Origin: Candidatus Gastranaerophilales bacterium
GTDB taxonomy: Bacteria; Cyanobacteriota; Vampirovibrionia; Gastranaerophilales; Gastranaerophilaceae
Assembly: GCA_023662705.1 (NCBI GenBank)
Contig: JAMPIM010000001.1
Span: forward strand, 32,216 to 96,215
Reading direction: 5' to 3'
Length of the DNA: 64,000 nucleotides
The stretch's first letter is position 1, and the number at the start of each line of letters is the position of its first letter. Positions 1,578 through 55,669 of this stretch are shown in pieces. The notes under the pieces were generated by a model, which saw only the letters and a program-made list of their open reading frames with translations, was not told the DNA's origin and did not search any database. A program made the translations under genes and the position numbers.

Positions 1578-4500
1578 TTGGATTTTCAGGATAACGATAA
1601 CAATACACAAGAGCTGATGGGTATCTTCCAAACCGAATCGGAAGATATTCTTGAGCATATTTTTGAAAACCTTCTGACTCTGGAAAAAATGCCCGGGGAT
1701 AGAGAAACTTCTGCTAATCTTTATCGTGAAATGCACAGTTTAAAAGGTGCTATCAGAATGGTCGGTTTCAATAATATTCAGATGATTATTCATAAAATCG
1801 AAGATATTTTTGACGCTGTTAATACTCAGAATCTAACATTAGAGCCTGATAAATTAAATTTGATAACAAAATCTGTTGAGCTGGTTTCTCAATATTTGCA
1901 GGAATCAATTAAGGCAGGAAGAGAAATTATAGGCGAAGAATTCAGCCCTACTGTTTCTGCGCTTGAATATATGGCAGAGGTAGACTTGAATCCTGAATTC
2001 AGCCAGCCTCAGCACATTGCTGCTATTGATGAGATGGCGAGTTTTGCCGGCATGGCTGATTTGGATAATCTTATGGAGCTGGCTCAAGCAGCCGAGGCTC
2101 AGACAAATGTACAGCCTGCTCAAGTAAATAATTGCCAGGAATATCAGGAAGAGATTAACTATGGGTTTAATACCTGTTTTGAATTGATTGACAGTATTGT
2201 TCCTGAAGAAGAATCTCAGGAAACTGTTATTTTAAGAGAAGAAGTTGCCAAGATTTATGAGCGTTTTGAATCTTCAGATTTATATGAAGTTAAAATGGCT
2301 TTGCAAAATGTGTTAACGAAACTCGATTTTGTTATGAGTGCAACAAATACTTTCACAATCAGTGAGATTTTGGAGCTTCGTAATGAGTTGAGTTCAGCGG
2401 CTGCAAAGTTTAATACGTCCTGTATTGATGATGAATCAAGCGGAACAACATTCTTTGAAATTGCAGAAAAAATTAATATGCTTCAAGGCAGCAGTGTTTA
2501 CGCAAAAGAAATCAAAGACGATATACTTCTCTTGAAAGAACATGCTGATAATAATGAAATTGTTGAAATTATCAATATGATTGAGGAGATTCTCGATTTC
2601 ATTATGGAAAACTCGGTTCAGCTTGAAGAACAGATGACCCAGACTCTAAAAAGCGGGGTTGAATACTGTGCTTCGCCTAACGAGAGCATTGATGGTGATT
2701 TGATTATTCAGCAGTTGGAAATCATGAAACAGCTGCTTGAATTAAACTTTAAAAAGGATTCGGGTGTCAGTGATGTCAAAAACCTTACTACTCAGAGCAC
2801 TGTTTCAAATAAATCATCTTCTTCAACCGAGATTAAAACACTGCACGTTAATGCGCAAAAACTGGATTTGTTGGTTAATCAGCTCGGCGAGCTTATTATT
2901 ACTAAAATCAAAACTGAAAAAAGTCTTGAAAAAATTGATTCTATTAAAAATGCGAATGAAGCATGTCAAAAAGATTTACTTAAGACATCAAATTATTTGC
3001 GTTATTACAACAGAAAATATCTCCAAAGCGGCGGCAGTGAACAATATACCGGAGCTTTTGTAAAACAGGTTTTTGCTCTGCTTTCCGATATTACGCAAAA
3101 TGTTTCCAGAACGATTTATGATTTGAATTCTTTGTATCGTTCTTCTAAGGAAGACGATATGAAAATGAGATTAATCATTGATGAGATGGAATCAATGGTT
3201 AAAAATATAAGAGTATTGCCTATTTCTACCGTGTTCAATTCTTTCACAAGAATGGTGCGTGATATTGCAACAGAAAAAGGCAAGGATATTGATTTCGAGA
3301 TTGAAGGTAAAGATACCTGTGCGGATAAAAAGATTATTGAAGAAATTAAGACTCCGCTTATTCATATTTTGCGCAACGCGATTGACCATGGTATTGAATC
3401 AAAAGAAGACAGATTACTTGCGGGTAAGAGTCCTGTCGGGAAGATTCTTTTGTCAGCAAAACAGGATGACAATACTGTTATAATTGATGTTATTGATGAC
3501 GGACAAGGATTTAATCTTGAAAAAATCAAGGATAGAGCTGTTTCAAGAGGGTTTTTGACTCAGGAAGATATTGATTCAATGTCTGACGAAGCTATTATGC
3601 AGATTATTTTCTGGCCTGGATTTACAACAGGAGATTCTATTACGAGTATTTCCGGAAGAGGCATTGGTCTTGATGTTGTTAAAACAAAGATTTCTCAGCT
3701 TAACGGTAAAGTTAAGGTTATATCAGAATTTGGCAAAGGCAGCTGTGTGCATATTGAAATTCCTGTAACTTTGACTACTTTGAGAGTATTTTTGGTTAAA
3801 ATTTCTGAGCAGGTGTTTGCGATTCCGATTCAGATGATTACTACATTTATCTTGAAAAAGCAGGATGAAATTAAAACAAACAACGGTACAAGGTCAATTG
3901 TTTATAATGATAAAGTTCTTCCGTTATATTATTTGGCGGACATTCTAGGTTTAGAGTTAACTCCGCGCGGGGAAAAAGAAACTATTTTGATTATTGAATC
4001 TGATGACAAAACTGTTGGTCTTGTTGTTGACAGACTTCTCGGCGATCAGGATATTTTGCAGAAAAAATTATCTCCTCCTTTATATAAGGTTAAGAATGTA
4101 TCGGGGATTACGAACCTTGCTTCAGGCGAATTGTGCTTGATTCTTAATATGCAGGATATTCTGCACCATGATTTCAACAAATCTGTTTCTACGGCAGCTG
4201 TGCCTAAGCTGCTATCGGCGGATATAATTTCTTATAAGAGAATACTTGTTGTTGACGATTCAATGACAACAAGAACTATGATTAAAAATATTCTTTTGAA
4301 TATAGGATATATGGTAGATGCTGTACTTGATGCAACAGAGGCTTTAGTTAAGTTAAAAATGAATCATTACGATTTGATTTTGACAGATTTGAATATGCCA
4401 AAAATTGATGGTAACGAGTTTATTGAACGATTGAAGAATGATGAAATGTATGCTGATATCCCTGTGATTGTAATGAGTTCGCAGCCAAGGGATAAGGCTA

Positions 4501-42478: not shown

Positions 42479-43840
42479 ATGTCGATTTTTATAATGATAC
42501 TTTTATTGGGTTTATTAATTTTTGTACACGAAGCAGGTCATTTCTTTGCTGCACGTGCATTTGGGATAAAAGTAGAAAGATTCGGCTTCGGTCTTCCTTT
42601 TGGGCCAACGATTTTCAAAAAACAATGCGGTGATATAGAAGTTGTGGTTCATGCATTTTTGCTGGGCGGCTATGTTTCGTTCCCTGATGACGATAAGGAC
42701 TGTGATTTGCCTGCGGATTCAGAGGACAGATTTGCTAATAAACCGCTCTGGCAGCGAGCGATTGTTGTTTCGGCAGGGGTAATCGCAAATGTGCTTTGTG
42801 CTTTCTTGCTTGTTTTGTTCGTGGCTGCTTATTCAAAACACCTTCCGTCAGGTAATTACGAAATTTATGCGGGAGAAATCAGCGCACCTAAAGGCGCTAG
42901 TATTTGGGATTCAGGAATCAAAACAGGCGATAGAATCCTGAACGCTAACGGTACGGATGTTAATAATGCTTATACGTTTGTGACTATTGTTAAAAACAGT
43001 GCTAAGAATAACGGAATCGTTTCATTAGAAACTATTGATAAAAACTATGATTTATTAAAAGGTTTGAATCCGGGCTTAGAAAAAGATGAAATTATTCCTG
43101 AAGAATTATCTGTAAGATTACCGGAAGGACCTGTTGCTGACATTATTTCAATGGATAAATATGCAGCTAAGGGAGCTAAATATTTTAAGAAAAACGGTAT
43201 TAAAATCGATGATAATATACAATCTCTTAAAAAAGAAATTGGAAACAAAACGGTTTATATTTCAAACGGAAAATATTCTTTGTATGACTTGGCAAAAGCA
43301 ATTTCAGATGGGAATCATCCGATAAATATTATTGTTGCTCGTGACGGACAAGAGGTTAAGCTGAATCCGATTTATCCTGATGAAAAAGGTTTGATTGGTT
43401 TGGGGCTGGCTTCTAAGCAAACTCTTGTAGATACAAAAACCCCTGTGGCTATGATTAAAGAAAGTAATCATTATTTGTGGGATAACACTGCAACAATGGT
43501 TTACTCATTGGGTCAGTTGTTTACAGGTAATATTCCGATGAAAGATTTGCACGGTGTTGTTGCGATTACTAAAATCGGCGGTGATATGATTGATAAAGCA
43601 GGAAAATCTTCAGGGATTTTGCTTGCAGCACTTATTTCCATGAACCTTGCGATTCTTAATATTTTACCTATTCCTGCACTTGATGGCGGGCATTTGATGT
43701 TTATGCTTGCAGAAAAAATTATGGGTAAACCGCTTGATGAAAAAATTATTGAGAAAATCTCTTCTGTATTTTTCTCTTTACTGATTCTATTGATGATATT
43801 CGTTATATTTAATGACATAATCTTGTTAATATCTAAATAG
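42479..43840 (+). CDS. rseP: RIP metalloprotease RseP (site-2 protease)
   Basis: HEAGHFFAAR HExxH in the first TM. PDZ region. C-terminal LDGG motif. Confidence 0.85.
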   Translation: MSIFIMILLLGLLIFVHEAGHFFAARAFGIKVERFGFGLPFGPTIFKKQCGDIEVVVHAFLLGGYVSFPDDDKDCDLPADSEDRFANKPLWQRAIVVSAGVIANVLCAFLLVLFVAAYSKHLPSGNYEIYAGEISAPKGASIWDSGIKTGDRILNANGTDVNNAYTFVTIVKNSAKNNGIVSLETIDKNYDLLKGLNPGLEKDEIIPEELSVRLPEGPVADIISMDKYAAKGAKYFKKNGIKIDDNIQSLKKEIGNKTVYISNGKYSLYDLAKAISDGNHPINIIVARDGQEVKLNPIYPDEKGLIGLGLASKQTLVDTKTPVAMIKESNHYLWDNTATMVYSLGQLFTGNIPMKDLHGVVAITKIGGDMIDKAGKSSGILLAALISMNLAILNILPIPALDGGHLMFMLAEKIMGKPLDEKIIEKISSVFFSLLILLMIFVIFNDIILLISK

Positions 43841-52335: not shown

Positions 52336-52339
52336 ACAC

Positions 52340-52368
52340 TTGAAAAATATATGATATAACGATATAAT
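52340..52368 (+). promoter_or_regulatory. sigma-70-type promoter TTGAAA-17-TATAAT directly after the proB stop, driving a short non-coding transcript
   Basis: TTGAAA at 52340-52345, 17-nt spacer, TATAAT at 52363-52368. Confidence 0.55.
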
Positions 52369-52375
52369 GATAATG

Positions 52376-52480
52376 TGATGGAGAGATACAGGGCAAAAGC
52401 CCCGTACCGTCCACCAGTCCATTACAGACAAATTTGAGAAGTAAAAATCATCGCTATTGCCGTAGCGATGATTTTTATTA
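52376..52480 (+). ncRNA. candidate antisense sRNA of about 105 nt (putative type I antitoxin), ending at an intrinsic terminator
   Basis: Defined by the promoter above and a 9-bp-stem terminator (ATCATCGCT/AGCGATGAT + TTTTT) at 52443-52478. It is fully complementary to the 3' two-thirds and 3' UTR of the minus-strand peptide ORF. It has no convincing ORF of its own. Confidence 0.45.
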
Positions 52481-52505
52481 GTAATAAAATTAACCGCTTC
52501 TTCAT
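52422..52505 (-). CDS. 27-aa hydrophobic peptide MKKRLILLLIKIIATAIAMIFTSQICL (putative type I toxin)
   Basis: Consensus SD GAGAGGAGGUGAU 7 nt upstream of the AUG. Cationic N-terminus followed by a single TM-length hydrophobic stretch. The 5' UTR contains an anti-SD (ACUCCUC). The 3' UTR segment CCCUGUAUCUCUCC can pair with the SD region. Confidence 0.4.
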   Translation of the reverse strand: MKKRLILLLIKIIATAIAMIFTSQICL

Positions 52506-52738
52506 TGTCTGTATCACCTCCTCTCTTCGCCTAGTTCCACCAGTTGTATGTGTGCGAGGAGTTGGTTGGACGAGTTTATTTAGTTATCAAATTACAAAAT
52601 CCATGTTTTAAATAACATCTTGTTATATTTATACATTATAATAGTCTTCATGAGTATTATAATCTCTTGAGTGTTGTTTGTAAATATATTATTATAATGC
52701 TTAATAAATGTTGTACAATATATTCAAAGGAGAATAAT

Positions 52739-52993
52739 ATGTTAATTGAAAATTATATGCACAGTCTTGAATCTCCATTTTTAGCCTTGAAAATGCTAAA
52801 TGAAAATCTTCGTGATTCGATACGTTTTAATTATGGAGGTATTAAAAAAGGTGATGAAAATAATGTTTTGGATGAGGTTTTAGCAATATCTTATGCCAGC
52901 AAAGTCTTGATTGAATATTTGCAAAATGATAGGGAAGAGATAAGAAAAATAGTAAACAGTAGTTATAAAGAGCTTTTGGAAGAAGAAATATAA
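52739..52993 (+). CDS. hypothetical small protein (84 aa)
   Basis: SD AAAGGAG 7 nt upstream of the ATG at 52739. The track start at 52667 has no RBS. A bidirectional terminator follows at 52996-53025. Confidence 0.5.
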   Translation: MLIENYMHSLESPFLALKMLNENLRDSIRFNYGGIKKGDENNVLDEVLAISYASKVLIEYLQNDREEIRKIVNSSYKELLEEEI

Positions 52994-53023
52994 AAGGCGG
53001 GATTGAAAATCCCGCCTTTTTCT

Positions 53024-55669
53024 TTATTTTAATTCATTTTCGATTTTTGCAAGAACTTCATCCAGTTTAGATGCATCCTTGACTCCGCCTTGTGCGAAGT
53101 TCGGACGTCCGCCGCCGTTAGCACCTGTTGCTCGGGCAATTTCTCCAACGATTTTGCCTGCATTTACTCCTTTAGAGACAAAGCCTTCTGAAACCTTTGC
53201 TGCAACCATTTTACTGTTAGCAAGAACAATTACGCTTTCGCCTAATTTGTTACCTAAAAGTTCAATACCTGCTTTGATTGCATCTGAGTCAAAGTCTTCA
53301 ATCTTAGAAATGAACAATTTGCCGCCTTCAATATCTTCTGCTTTAGAAATGAATGTTGCAAATTTGCTTCTTGCAGCTTCTTCTTTAACTCTTGTAAGTT
53401 CTTTTTGTAACTCACGATTTTCTTCCGCAAGTTTTTCAACACGTTCAAGAACTTCATCTGTATGAACTTTGAATCTTGCTTCAAGTGCGTTAGTCACTTT
53501 TGCTTTTTCGTTCAGGTATTCGATTGCTGCATTTGATACAACAAGTTCAATTCTTCTTGTGCCTGCTGCAATTGCACCTTCTGAAACGATTTTAACAAGT
53601 CTTAAATCGCCTGTGTTTTTAGCGTGAGTACCTGCACAAAATTCGCGTGAAATTACTTCCGGTTCGCTGTCGTGTTTACATTTGCAGCCCCCGCCGCATT
53701 TGCATTTTTTAGCTCCGCCTATTGATACAACTCTTACTACATCTTCGTATTTTTCGCCGAATAGGGCTGTTGCACCTGTAAGTTTTGCTTTTTCGATATC
53801 CATAACATCAGTTTGAACAGGGAGTTTTTCACCAATCCATTTGTTCATCAAGTTTTCTGTTTTTTCAATTTCTTGAGGTGTCATTGCTCTTGAGAATGTG
53901 AAATCGAATCTCATACGATTTTCTTCAACCTGAGAACCTGCTTGTTTAACTTCATCACCTACAACATTGATTAGCGCTGCTTGTAATAAGTGTGCTGATG
54001 TGTGGTGAACTTTGATTTCGTTACGTCTTGCAACATCGATTAATGCAGCAACGCTGTCACCAACATTAATTTCGCCGTTAACGATTTGACATCTGTGAAC
54101 GAATAGGTGGTTAACTTTGAATGTTGTTAAAACTTCTGCTTTTAATGTTTCGTTTACAAGATAACCGCTGTCGCCTACCTGCCCGCCGCATTCTGCGTAG
54201 AATGGTGTTCTGTCAAGAACAACATCTGTATAACCTTCACCGTCAATAAGTGCAAGAACTTTAGCTTCGCAAGCCGTTTCTTCGTAACCTAAGAATTCAG
54301 TTGAACCTACTTCTTCTTCAACTTTTGCGTATTTGATATCGCCTGTTACGGAAATCTTAGCAGTAGCTGCTTTTGCACGGTCTTTTTGTTCCTGCATAGC
54401 TGTTTTAAATCCCGCTTCATCAATTGCGAGTCCGTTTTCTTCTGCGATTTCTTTTGTTAATTCAAATGGGAAGCCGTAAGTATCATAGAGTTTGAATGCG
54501 CTTTCGCCATCGATATCTTTTTTAGCATCGATAAATTCGTCAAGCATTTTGTAGCCTCTATCAAGAGTTTTTGCGAAACGTTCTTCTTCTTTTTTGATGA
54601 CATCAACGATTTTTTCTTTGTTTTTAACCAAATCAGGGTAAGCCTGACCATAGTTTTCAACTACAACATCAACCAATTTGTACAAGAACGGTAAATCCAT
54701 ACCTAAGATTTTTCCGTGACGAAGAGCACGACGGAGAATCATTCTTAGAACATAGCTTCTGCCTTCGTTACCAGGGATTACGCCGTCCGAAATCAGGAAT
54801 GATACACATCTTGCGTGGTCGGTGATGATTCTTAGAGAAACATCGGTTTTTTCTGATTTTTTATAAGGAACGCCTGACATTTCAGAAACTTTATCCAAAA
54901 TAGGTTTTAAAAGGTCTGTTTCAAATGTAGAAGCTACACCCTGGCAAACCATTGTAATACGTTCCAAGCCCATACCTGTATCAACGTTTTTCTTTTCTAA
55001 AGGTGACTGGTTGCCTTCTTCGTCCTGATAAAGTTCAGTGAATACAAGGTTCCAGATTTCAACCCAGCGGTCGCATTCGCAAGTGTCGATGCCGCAGTCA
55101 GGGTGGTTACATTTGTATTCTTCACCTAAGTCGTAGTGGATTTCTGAACATGGACCGCAAGAACCGGAAGCTCCGGGAGGACCCCAGAAGTTGTCTTTTT
55201 TGCCTTTTCTTTTAATCCTTTCGGCTGGAACACCTATACTTTGCCAGATTTCGAAAGCTTCATCATCAGTTTCAAAAATTGTTATCCAAAGACGGTCTTT
55301 GTCGAGTTTAAGAACTTCTGTAACAAATTCCCAAGCCCAAGGAATAATTTCTTTTTTATAATAATCGCCGAATGAAAAGTTTCCTAGCATTTCAAAGAAG
55401 GTGTGGTGGCGCGGTGTGCGTCCAACATTTTCAATATCTGAGTCTTTTCCGCCTGCACGTGCGCATTTTTGACAAGAAGTTGCGCGAGCAGGGTCATAAG
55501 GTGATTTTACTATACCTAAGAAAATAGGTAAAAATTGTAACATGCCCGCTGTAGTTAATAATACGGTTGGATTGTCAGGCACAAGGCTTGAACTTTCCAC
55601 AACCGTATGAGCATGTTTGTCTTTAAAATAATCTAAATATAATTGTCTGATTTCGTTTCCTTTTAACAT
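53024..55669 (-). CDS. alaS: alanine--tRNA ligase
   Basis: Class II aaRS motifs. Conserved FTNAGM-like, editing-domain HTAEHLL-like and C-terminal DHHA1 regions. 881 aa. Confidence 0.95.
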   Translation of the reverse strand: MLKGNEIRQLYLDYFKDKHAHTVVESSSLVPDNPTVLLTTAGMLQFLPIFLGIVKSPYDPARATSCQKCARAGGKDSDIENVGRTPRHHTFFEMLGNFSFGDYYKKEIIPWAWEFVTEVLKLDKDRLWITIFETDDEAFEIWQSIGVPAERIKRKGKKDNFWGPPGASGSCGPCSEIHYDLGEEYKCNHPDCGIDTCECDRWVEIWNLVFTELYQDEEGNQSPLEKKNVDTGMGLERITMVCQGVASTFETDLLKPILDKVSEMSGVPYKKSEKTDVSLRIITDHARCVSFLISDGVIPGNEGRSYVLRMILRRALRHGKILGMDLPFLYKLVDVVVENYGQAYPDLVKNKEKIVDVIKKEEERFAKTLDRGYKMLDEFIDAKKDIDGESAFKLYDTYGFPFELTKEIAEENGLAIDEAGFKTAMQEQKDRAKAATAKISVTGDIKYAKVEEEVGSTEFLGYEETACEAKVLALIDGEGYTDVVLDRTPFYAECGGQVGDSGYLVNETLKAEVLTTFKVNHLFVHRCQIVNGEINVGDSVAALIDVARRNEIKVHHTSAHLLQAALINVVGDEVKQAGSQVEENRMRFDFTFSRAMTPQEIEKTENLMNKWIGEKLPVQTDVMDIEKAKLTGATALFGEKYEDVVRVVSIGGAKKCKCGGGCKCKHDSEPEVISREFCAGTHAKNTGDLRLVKIVSEGAIAAGTRRIELVVSNAAIEYLNEKAKVTNALEARFKVHTDEVLERVEKLAEENRELQKELTRVKEEAARSKFATFISKAEDIEGGKLFISKIEDFDSDAIKAGIELLGNKLGESVIVLANSKMVAAKVSEGFVSKGVNAGKIVGEIARATGANGGGRPNFAQGGVKDASKLDEVLAKIENELK

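Follow-up and report, generated by a model that had tools for sequence, protein, structure and literature searches.

The gap between the proB stop codon (52335) and an 84-amino-acid (aa) open reading frame (ORF; 52739-52993), which lies between proB and alaS, belongs to a 64-kb stretch of DNA that we analysed as a whole and call the window. The gap harbors a candidate type I toxin-antitoxin-like module, in which a minus-strand mRNA would encode a short hydrophobic peptide and a convergent plus-strand RNA would act as the antitoxin. The elements of the module are the following (SD, Shine-Dalgarno sequence; UTR, untranslated region).

52656..52684, minus strand: best candidate promoter of the toxin mRNA, TTTACA-17-TATAAT, 11/12 matches, with a transcription start near 52649.
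52567..52503, minus strand: 5'-UTR stem-loop sequestering the SD, the RNA element that defines the family; matched by covariance model R1 and terminating on the ATG.
52562..52554, minus strand: anti-SD ACTCCTCGC (also ACUCCUCGC), which supplies the 5' strand of both helix P1 and helix P2.
52536..52544, minus strand: loop motif ACUGGUGGA, first copy, at the apex of the 5'-UTR stem-loop (direct repeat D4); complementary to UCCACCAGU of the antisense RNA.
52525..52513, minus strand: SD GAGAGGAGGTGAT, followed by 7 nt and the ATG at 52505; read as 52513..52525 it is also given as GAGAGGAGGUGAU, a pattern that occurs once in the window.
52505..52422, minus strand: candidate toxin ORF of 27 codons plus TAA (52424..52422), encoding the predicted membrane peptide MKKRLILLLIKIIATAIAMIFTSQICL.
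52442..52477, both strands: perfect 15-bp hairpin in codons 11-21 of the ORF, with arms at 52442-52456 and 52463-52477 and flanks A5 and T5; putative intrinsic terminator of the antisense RNA.
52410..52418, minus strand: motif ACUGGUGGA, second copy, in the 3' UTR, 4 nt past the stop codon; its plus strand is UCCACCAGU of the antisense RNA.
52376..52416, minus strand: 3'-terminal stem-loop of the mRNA, with two G-U pairs that are A-C mismatches on the opposite strand.
52380..52393, minus strand: 3'-UTR segment CCCTGTATCTCTCC (also CCCUGUAUCUCUCC), complementary to the SD region GGAGGUGAUACAG.
52340-52368, plus strand: antisense-RNA promoter TTGAAA-17-TATAAT, 11/12 matches, 5 nt past the proB stop.
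52376..52485, plus strand: predicted antisense RNA of ~110 nt, the candidate antitoxin, covering the ORF from about codon 8 through codon 27 together with its stop codon and the 3' UTR, with ends deduced from promoter and terminator.

The SD, its 7-nt spacer and the 27-aa ORF had been proposed in an initial annotation of this DNA and were found exactly as described, as was the promoter directly past proB. The bidirectional intrinsic terminator claimed there also holds, since the inverted repeat and its flanks are terminator-like on both strands. The peptide has a KKR N-terminus followed by ~20 hydrophobic residues. A 27-aa ORF is by itself unremarkable, as 83 ORFs of at least 20 aa lie within 6 kb, and promoter-like sites are frequent in the local AT-rich DNA (12 found versus 5.4 expected). 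Yet no other intergenic ORF in the 64-kb window is 16-45 aa long, starts with an ATG behind an SD and has at least 12 hydrophobic residues in 15. Compared with shuffled sequences, the fold of a 115-nt plus-strand RNA has z=-7.4 and that of a 281-nt minus-strand RNA z=-6.0; in the fold of the window 5' UTR, CUCCUCGC is paired with GCG..AGGAG.

Exact protein look-up and a genome scan based on proB assign the window to a Gastranaerophilales (Melainabacteria/Vampirovibrionia) metagenome-assembled genome (MAG). Modules of the same architecture, ~270 nt long, are present at least 27 times in other Gastranaerophilales MAGs and IMG/VR contigs. A blastn comparison of the element with 80 proB loci returned the same species only and none from other species; the relatives were discovered by reading the intergenic DNA of proB loci, not via similarity. 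They lie directly past proB in the orientation opposite to that of the window (L003, L004, L011), between thrC and proB, upstream of the latter (L005, L006, L029, L012), and at other sites (L008, L054, L065). A search pattern derived from their shared antisense promoter, CCCT-N8-ATTATTTA-N13-TTTGTCAA, matched 20 IMG/VR contigs, and the full module was present in all 20. A blastn search of phage GenBank gave no useful match. A recurrent 125-nt match (L109, L114, L119, L120, L123, L140, L142 and others) was discarded as an unrelated coding region; this GC-rich stretch with one open reading frame is nearly identical in many human-gut metagenome contigs and is a chance pattern match.

The family plan starts with a promoter, an mRNA start at (C/U)AGGG and an anti-SD:SD stem-loop carrying a short motif on top. 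The coding part consists of AAAGGAGG, a spacer of 5-9 nt in most members, an ATG or GTG, and a hydrophobic ORF of 22-32 aa. Past the stop codon the motif appears again, followed by a 3' stem-loop, CCCU(A/G) and a convergent TTGACA-17-AATAAT promoter; the relative position of this antisense promoter, TTGACAAA-N13-TAAATAAT, is conserved family-wide. Both in the family and in the window, the ORF core varies while the UTRs stay conserved. The window element lacks the GGG mRNA start, the CCCU 3' end and the family antisense-promoter pattern, and its 3' UTR is complementary to the SD region instead. We classify it from its sequence as a divergent family member, subtype A.

In most modules (e.g. L084, L097, L054, L008), the mRNA and the antisense RNA seem to start on the same 6-10 nt (CAGGGUA, GUAGGGC, UGUAGGGGCG or AGGGAA), which makes the mRNA 5' end complementary to its 3' end; such shared starts are absent in the subtype of the window. 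The end pairs change together between subtypes (CAGGGUA/UACCCUG, GUAGGGC/GCCCUAC, UGUAGGGGCG/CGCCCCUACA), and their complementarity could reflect either a helix that closes the mRNA end to end or an initiation sequence common to both RNAs. In L003, L004 and L011, where the modules are co-oriented with proB, the -35 box of the module (TAGACA-17-TACAAT, e.g. L004:4129-4160) takes its first half from the TAG stop codon of proB.

A covariance-model search led back to the same site. Model R1 is based on 15 modules of other subtypes, with no subtype A sequence among them, whose 5' UTRs were aligned by hand and N-padded to pass MAFFT unchanged. Run against both strands of the window, it gave one significant match, at 52567..52503(-) (20.6 bits, E=0.0024), the last three positions of which are the ATG of the ORF. 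The next-best match, at 42843-42911 (+) (10.8 bits, E=1), is non-significant. The upstream anti-SD claimed earlier is likewise borne out, as the homologous helices covary across the family. In the hand alignment, all cells of helix P2 are paired (100%) and 5/6 of its pairs vary on both sides, and the anti-SD:SD helix P1 is paired in 82%; the covariation score of P1/P2 was attained by 0/500 shuffles, and slid-partner controls were 35-52% paired. Every 5' UTR folded singly also sequesters its own SD. MAFFT followed by RNAalifold on the 5' UTRs yielded no structure, owing to misalignment.

Known RNA families do not account for the element. At the gathering score, Rfam finds nothing in the window or in 14 member loci. 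GGUGGA motifs resembling those of T-boxes led us to consider a T-box, a riboswitch, 6S or another known RNA, which we rejected given the lack of an Rfam match and of a gene downstream on the minus strand. At E<=10, only RefA9 (par RNA I of pTEF1) appears besides noise, at 35.1 bits against a gathering score of 49; being sub-threshold and absent in L001 and other members, this match is most likely a terminator look-alike, and it was dropped as a lead to par.

The initial annotation had singled out the terminator within the ORF as an oddity. The same arrangement is seen in 22/27 family modules, where, read in the antisense direction, an in-ORF hairpin precedes a U tract; one subtype (F) differs, with a hairpin that spans the stop codon (by eye). 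Reading the hairpin as the terminator of the antisense RNA explains its position, because a 3'-overlapping antisense RNA requires such placement. The hairpins also differ in stability between strands. In the window, the 3' stem-loop reaches -25.7 kcal/mol on the mRNA strand versus -15.3 on the plus strand, a difference due to the two G-U pairs, and the in-ORF hairpin reaches -20.0 on the antisense RNA versus -18.0 on the mRNA (-18.3 versus -12.8 in L001). These trends extend to 21/27 and 20/27 modules, counts that include some selection bias in hairpin choice. As far as the predicted folds go, the asymmetry fits two functional RNAs.

Our analysis also points to a second contact between the two RNAs. 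The 9-nt sequence TCCACCAGT occurs twice in the window DNA, at 52410-52418 and 52536-52544. As the motif lies both in the 5' loop and past the stop codon, the antisense RNA includes a stretch complementary to the 5' loop, by which it can contact the 5' UTR. The motif varies by subtype and is common to both sites within each module (AGUUAUG, AUGAAGAAA, CGAAGAAA, UAGACCUC, CAGAACUC, UAAGUCUC); a few subtypes, e.g. L008, are without a clear repeat. Across the family, the match sum of cognate motifs is 132 versus 104.7 +/- 4.4 after permutation, a value attained in 0/20000 permutations, and for the window alone a shared stretch of at least 9 nt arose in 27/20000 shuffles. These results bear on the most skeptical explanation, namely that hexamers, a terminator and a short ORF coincide by chance in AT-rich intergenic DNA. 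The frequency of short ORFs and promoter-like sites and the chance-level duplex energies of single sequences are what such a coincidence would produce, but the motif permutation test, the family-level conservation, the covariance-model match and the covariation leave it hardly any credibility.

Comparison with the sister strain L001 shows where the locus changes. L001 is ~96-97% identical to the window and its intergenic flanks are near-identical, with 3 differences outside a patch of ~73 nt (52435-52507) that is ~26% to about a third diverged. The L001 ORF, MKRSLFLLIVKISATGIALILTTLICL, retains exactly 27 codons despite the ~26% nucleotide divergence. The hairpin is kept as well, through one compensatory change and one U-G pair that exists on the plus strand only (a C-A mismatch on the minus strand). 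A perfect 9-bp inverted repeat, 52423-52431 / 52505-52513 (TACAGACAA / TTGTCTGTA), through which the start-codon region pairs with the last codons and the stop, exactly flanks the patch that is hypervariable between window and L001; in the right arm of L001, a 3-nt deletion shortens the SD-ATG spacer. Inversion of the patch between these repeats was excluded by eye, as loop and flanks have the same orientation in L001.

Codon-level comparisons of family members favor translation of the ORF. Within-subtype pairs contain 116/40/132 substitutions at codon positions 1/2/3, a count over non-independent pairs that is dominated by the F subtype. L011 and L001_B differ by 4 synonymous and 0 non-synonymous codon changes, and peptide motifs, e.g. 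(D/E)KIIMLLLA and KNG with a C-terminal R, are retained across diverged DNA. We therefore regard as very unlikely an element made of RNA only, either a convergent pair of structured non-coding RNAs or a mobile RNA cassette, in which the ORF is an untranslated by-product of an A/U-flanked hairpin. Such a hairpin with A5/T5 flanks does automatically encode K-I-I-A...A-M-I-F, the subtype A pair is without codon bias, the UTRs are more conserved than the ORF, and the antisense frame is also open in 14/25 modules. Conversely, all 27 modules have an ATG or GTG shortly past a near-consensus SD and a stop just ahead of the 3' motif, codon position 2 is strongly protected, and an elaborate, covarying SD lock makes little sense unless the mRNA is translated.

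The modules turn over independently of their surroundings. L001 contains a second module of another subtype, encoding the peptide MLFFVTEETLWLILAIIIALYHFK, at 3288-3559, between the terminator of the 84-aa gene and the alaS stop; the equivalent position in the window (52994-53023) holds only a 30-nt terminator. At L068:3700-4640 (minus), three tandem modules have near-identical promoters and UTRs and different ORFs, two encoding 32-aa peptides with KEKAPELELLELF-like ends and one the 23-aa MTKIIKTAITVIITVLQIIMYWL. Judged from these sequences, the ORF behaves as a swappable cassette within a fixed RNA scaffold, and modules are gained, lost, inverted and tandemly triplicated, like selfish cassettes.

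This mobility speaks to a further explanation, in which the site would be a cis-regulatory or 3'-end element of its neighbors, either a proB terminator with a 3'-UTR small RNA or a leader of the 84-aa gene, and the minus-strand ORF would be irrelevant. The 52442-52477 hairpin is the first hairpin with a U tract past proB, so that proB transcripts probably end there, and the plus-strand RNA is directed toward the 84-aa gene. However, modules are found past proB in the opposite orientation (L003, L004, L011), upstream of proB, beside alaS (L001), in tandem (L068) and on virus-classified contigs, which makes the module independent of any given neighbor. Rfam finds no leader or riboswitch, and the 84-aa ORF begins ~260 nt past the terminator, with a promoter-like site (9/12) in between. 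We rate a neighbor-dependent role as highly improbable.

Three design elements of the module match published type I systems: a 3'-overlapping antisense RNA, a 5' stem-loop over the SD and convergently transcribed direct repeats (PMC7472228, PMC8594479). With par (Fst/RNA II) of E. faecalis pAD1 and the Fst/Ldr loci, it shares convergent promoters, an SD-sequestering 5' stem-loop and a hairpin able to terminate transcription both ways. In par, direct repeats transcribed in opposite directions give the antisense RNA a second contact in the 5' region of the toxin mRNA (PMC7472228), and the 5'-loop/3' motif of the window follows the logic of these DRa/DRb repeats. The two differ in that the window hairpin lies within codons 11-21 whereas that of par is past the ORF, in that the antisense overlap covers ~105 nt including ORF and 3' UTR instead of the terminator only, and in that the window has one 9-nt repeat, in a loop upstream of the SD, whereas DRa/DRb lie over the initiation region. 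In Fst/Ldr toxins, the hydrophobic helix is accompanied by a PXXXG motif and the C-terminal tail is charged (PMC7472228); the window peptide has no proline, PXXXG motif or charged C-terminal tail, and no Fst/Ldr model of Pfam or NCBIfam matches at E<=10. The membership in the Fst, TxpA, BsrG or AapA families to which the initial annotation had likened the peptide is thus unsupported, as no hidden Markov model (HMM) of a toxin family matches.

Bacillus type I systems of the 3'-overlap kind are linked to prophages or chromosomal islands. The module shares with txpA/RatA, bsrG/SR4, bsrE/SR5 and yonT/SR6 a convergent antisense RNA over the 3' end of the ORF; it differs from them in host phylum and in the lack of any Pfam, NCBIfam, Rfam or sequence similarity. 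The earlier comparison of the convergent RNA over the 3' half of the ORF with txpA/RatA and bsrG/SR4 therefore fits as an analogy of design and not as membership. Antisense RNAs of the RatA and SR4 type lie on the 3' side, convergent to the toxin gene, and overlap the 3' part of its ORF (PMC8594479), and SR4 is described as controlling both mRNA decay and translation (PMC3834814). The 3'-overlap families with an antisense RNA over the ORF (PMC8594479) must share the terminator-in-ORF arrangement. Given that the family peptides are only 22-32 aa long, the terminator hairpin of the antisense RNA encodes their hydrophobic core, unlike in the Bacillus systems. As predicted here, the module combines the 3'-overlap logic of RatA and SR4 with par-like repeats and an SD-locking stem-loop; judged by the tests made, it is a member of none of those families.

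The hok and aapA1 mRNAs use 5'-3' long-distance pairing, and in hok/Sok and aapA1/IsoA1 the antisense RNA targets the 5' part of the mRNA, with activation through 3' processing. These toxin mRNAs are kept inert by intramolecular folds, a feature that our family would share; in most of its members the mRNA ends are complementary, although an equally good reason for this complementarity may be that transcription from both promoters begins on one common sequence. The family peptides are similar in length and style to the 26-29-aa enterobacterial toxins ShoB, DinQ, TisB and ZorO; MKRQVIKSAIKVLIALLNLIYCLL and MERIIKAAITALIAALQIILIFL, for example, resemble ShoB. In ShoB/OhsC, TisB/IstR, DinQ/AgrB and Zor/Orz, the antisense RNA is divergent, 5' of the mRNA and non-overlapping (PMC8594479), whereas in the window it is convergent and overlaps the 3' end; the resemblance to ShoB/DinQ-type toxins probably arose by convergent evolution. 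The Microcystis aeruginosa msoT1/msoA1 locus is a candidate type I system in which a cis-encoded antisense RNA binds the ORF 3' end and the 3' UTR (PMC12390103). It has this arrangement and the phylum Cyanobacteria in common with the window; MsoT1 differs in its 63 aa, its two predicted membrane helices and its unrelated sequence. A 2025 paper presents msoT1 as the first in Cyanobacteria and confines the type I systems known before it to Proteobacteria, Firmicutes and Tenericutes (PMC12390103); the literature searched contains none for Melainabacteria.

We conclude that the site probably belongs to a family of type I toxin-antitoxin-like modules that had not been annotated before. This agrees with the proposal of the initial annotation and is supported by the family architecture, the covariance-model match, the covariation, the codon periodicity and the cassette-like turnover. 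In its sequence, the candidate module displays three type I traits: a small hydrophobic peptide, an antisense gene and SD sequestration. We infer from them both RNAs with the ends given above, a toxic peptide, a neutralising antisense RNA and a role as an addiction or stress cassette.

A number of observations weigh against this conclusion. Every sequence in the study is a MAG or a metagenomic contig. Subtype A comprises two alleles, that of the window (with the near-identical copy L002) and that of L001, and this pair differs by 8/5/7 substitutions at the three codon positions, showing no codon bias, and by 11 non-synonymous versus 5 synonymous codon changes. An A/C-type pattern scan of metagenome contigs gave 102 matches, the sole true one being the L001 contig, and of two subtype A patterns run against viral contigs, one had 0 matches and the other 1 chance match. 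The R1 E-value is moderate and its calibration rough; because the alignment was made by hand with the structure in mind, the covariation figures lean toward that structure.

Other contrary points concern the transcripts. The candidate mRNA promoter is ~70 nt farther upstream than those of the relatives, and the 5' UTR predicted from it, ~144 nt versus ~75 nt in relatives, makes the start of the toxin mRNA uncertain. The in-ORF hairpin is followed by UUUUU on the mRNA strand, where it resembles a strong terminator that would truncate the ORF, and there is no canonical terminator at the end of the full-length toxin mRNA. The duplex energy of the window antisense RNA with the 5' UTR (RNAduplex) is no better than that of shuffles, and across the family cognate duplex energies are better than non-cognate ones in some subtypes only (p=0.065). 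The second lock claimed in the initial annotation, between 3' UTR and SD, stands as a complementarity (12 bp, one bulge), but its duplex energy was reached by 130/500 shuffles and thus supports it weakly; the 3'-UTR segment 52380..52393 could alternatively pair inside the local 3' hairpin.

Finally, no family peptide matches any model, toxin HMMs included, in Pfam, NCBIfam, PHROGs or PADLOC. The best sub-cut-off scores, 15.3 bits for DinQ (cut-off 30) and 14.2 bits for PepG1, belong to relatives and not to the window peptide, which is absent from a 15-billion-protein collection by exact look-up. The lack of a toxin-family match also fits a small membrane-protein gene under cis-antisense control that is no toxin-antitoxin system and has a benign or accessory product, for instance a membrane modulator or a phage exclusion or lysis-timing peptide whose level the antisense RNA tunes. 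The evidence for an ORF and two RNAs suits such a gene equally well, and the 32-aa relatives are recorded just as 'hypothetical protein [Caudoviricetes sp.]'. We nevertheless find a benign peptide unlikely, since the mRNA has multiple translational locks downstream of a consensus promoter, the modules occur as a tandem triplication with swapped ORFs and as presence or absence between ~97%-identical strains, the ORFs are hypervariable, and some sites are on virus-classified (IMG/VR) contigs. These traits are hallmarks of type I toxin modules and unusual for a housekeeping small protein (PMC8594479, PMC7472228).

Within the toxin-antitoxin reading, we lean, at somewhat better than even confidence, toward a conserved RNA scaffold (promoters, SD lock, 3' stem-loop and antisense promoter) that is kept while the peptide-coding core is exchanged or diversified as a cassette. 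In this reading, the terminator hairpin of the antitoxin would encode the transmembrane core of the toxin, and the antitoxin would contact the mRNA at two sites, uniting RatA/SR4 and par logic. In the mechanism that we propose for the window, the minus-strand mRNA, transcribed from the 52684..52656 promoter or a weaker one closer to the ORF, would encode a 27-aa single-helix membrane peptide. It would be kept translationally silent by the P1/P2 lock, which places the anti-SD (52562..52554) on the SD, and may be further constrained by the long mid-ORF hairpin and possibly by the 3'-UTR segment; many toxin transcripts may end at the in-ORF hairpin and its UUUUU, and thus be devoid of a stop codon. 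The convergent ~110-nt RNA, running from the proB-abutting promoter to the in-ORF hairpin, would pair, through full complementarity, with the last two thirds of the ORF and the 3' UTR and, via its 9-nt UCCACCAGU, with the apical loop of the 5' stem-loop; the proB 3' UTR, ending at the same hairpin, probably also acts as antisense. With complementarity to both the 3' UTR/ORF and the 5' loop, the antisense RNA could target the mRNA to double-strand cleavage and also keep the SD lock shut. Pairing would block translation and promote mRNA decay, and loss of the antisense supply would lead to peptide synthesis and membrane damage.

Small accessory genes seem to use the proB-alaS gap as a landing site. 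The 84-aa ORF is an orphan found on two contigs only, with no Pfam or PHROG match and a weak, non-significant PADLOC match to PDC-M69C (E=0.004); its homologue in L011 (~4736 onward) sits beside an apparent XRE-type helix-turn-helix gene on the opposite strand (by eye). Overlapping divergent promoter-like sites lie at 52656-52695, the minus-strand TTTACA-17-TATAAT (11/12) and a plus-strand TTGAGT-17-TATTAT (9/12), the latter preceding the 84-aa ORF. In alaS (53024-55669, minus), a Cys/Lys-rich stretch, KKCKCGGGCKCKHD, is located near the C-terminal third of the alanyl-tRNA synthetase, and the last alaS codons differ between the window and L001.

Type I systems escape standard annotation, and the module accounts for an otherwise empty 400-nt gap past proB. 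If the assignment is true, the class would come to include an uncultured gut lineage and probably the phages of that lineage. The family would then provide a well-sampled natural series of constant UTR scaffolds with changing toxin cores, useful for studying specificity and the dual coding of peptide and terminator hairpin, and its covariance model would be available for annotating such modules in gut metagenomes.

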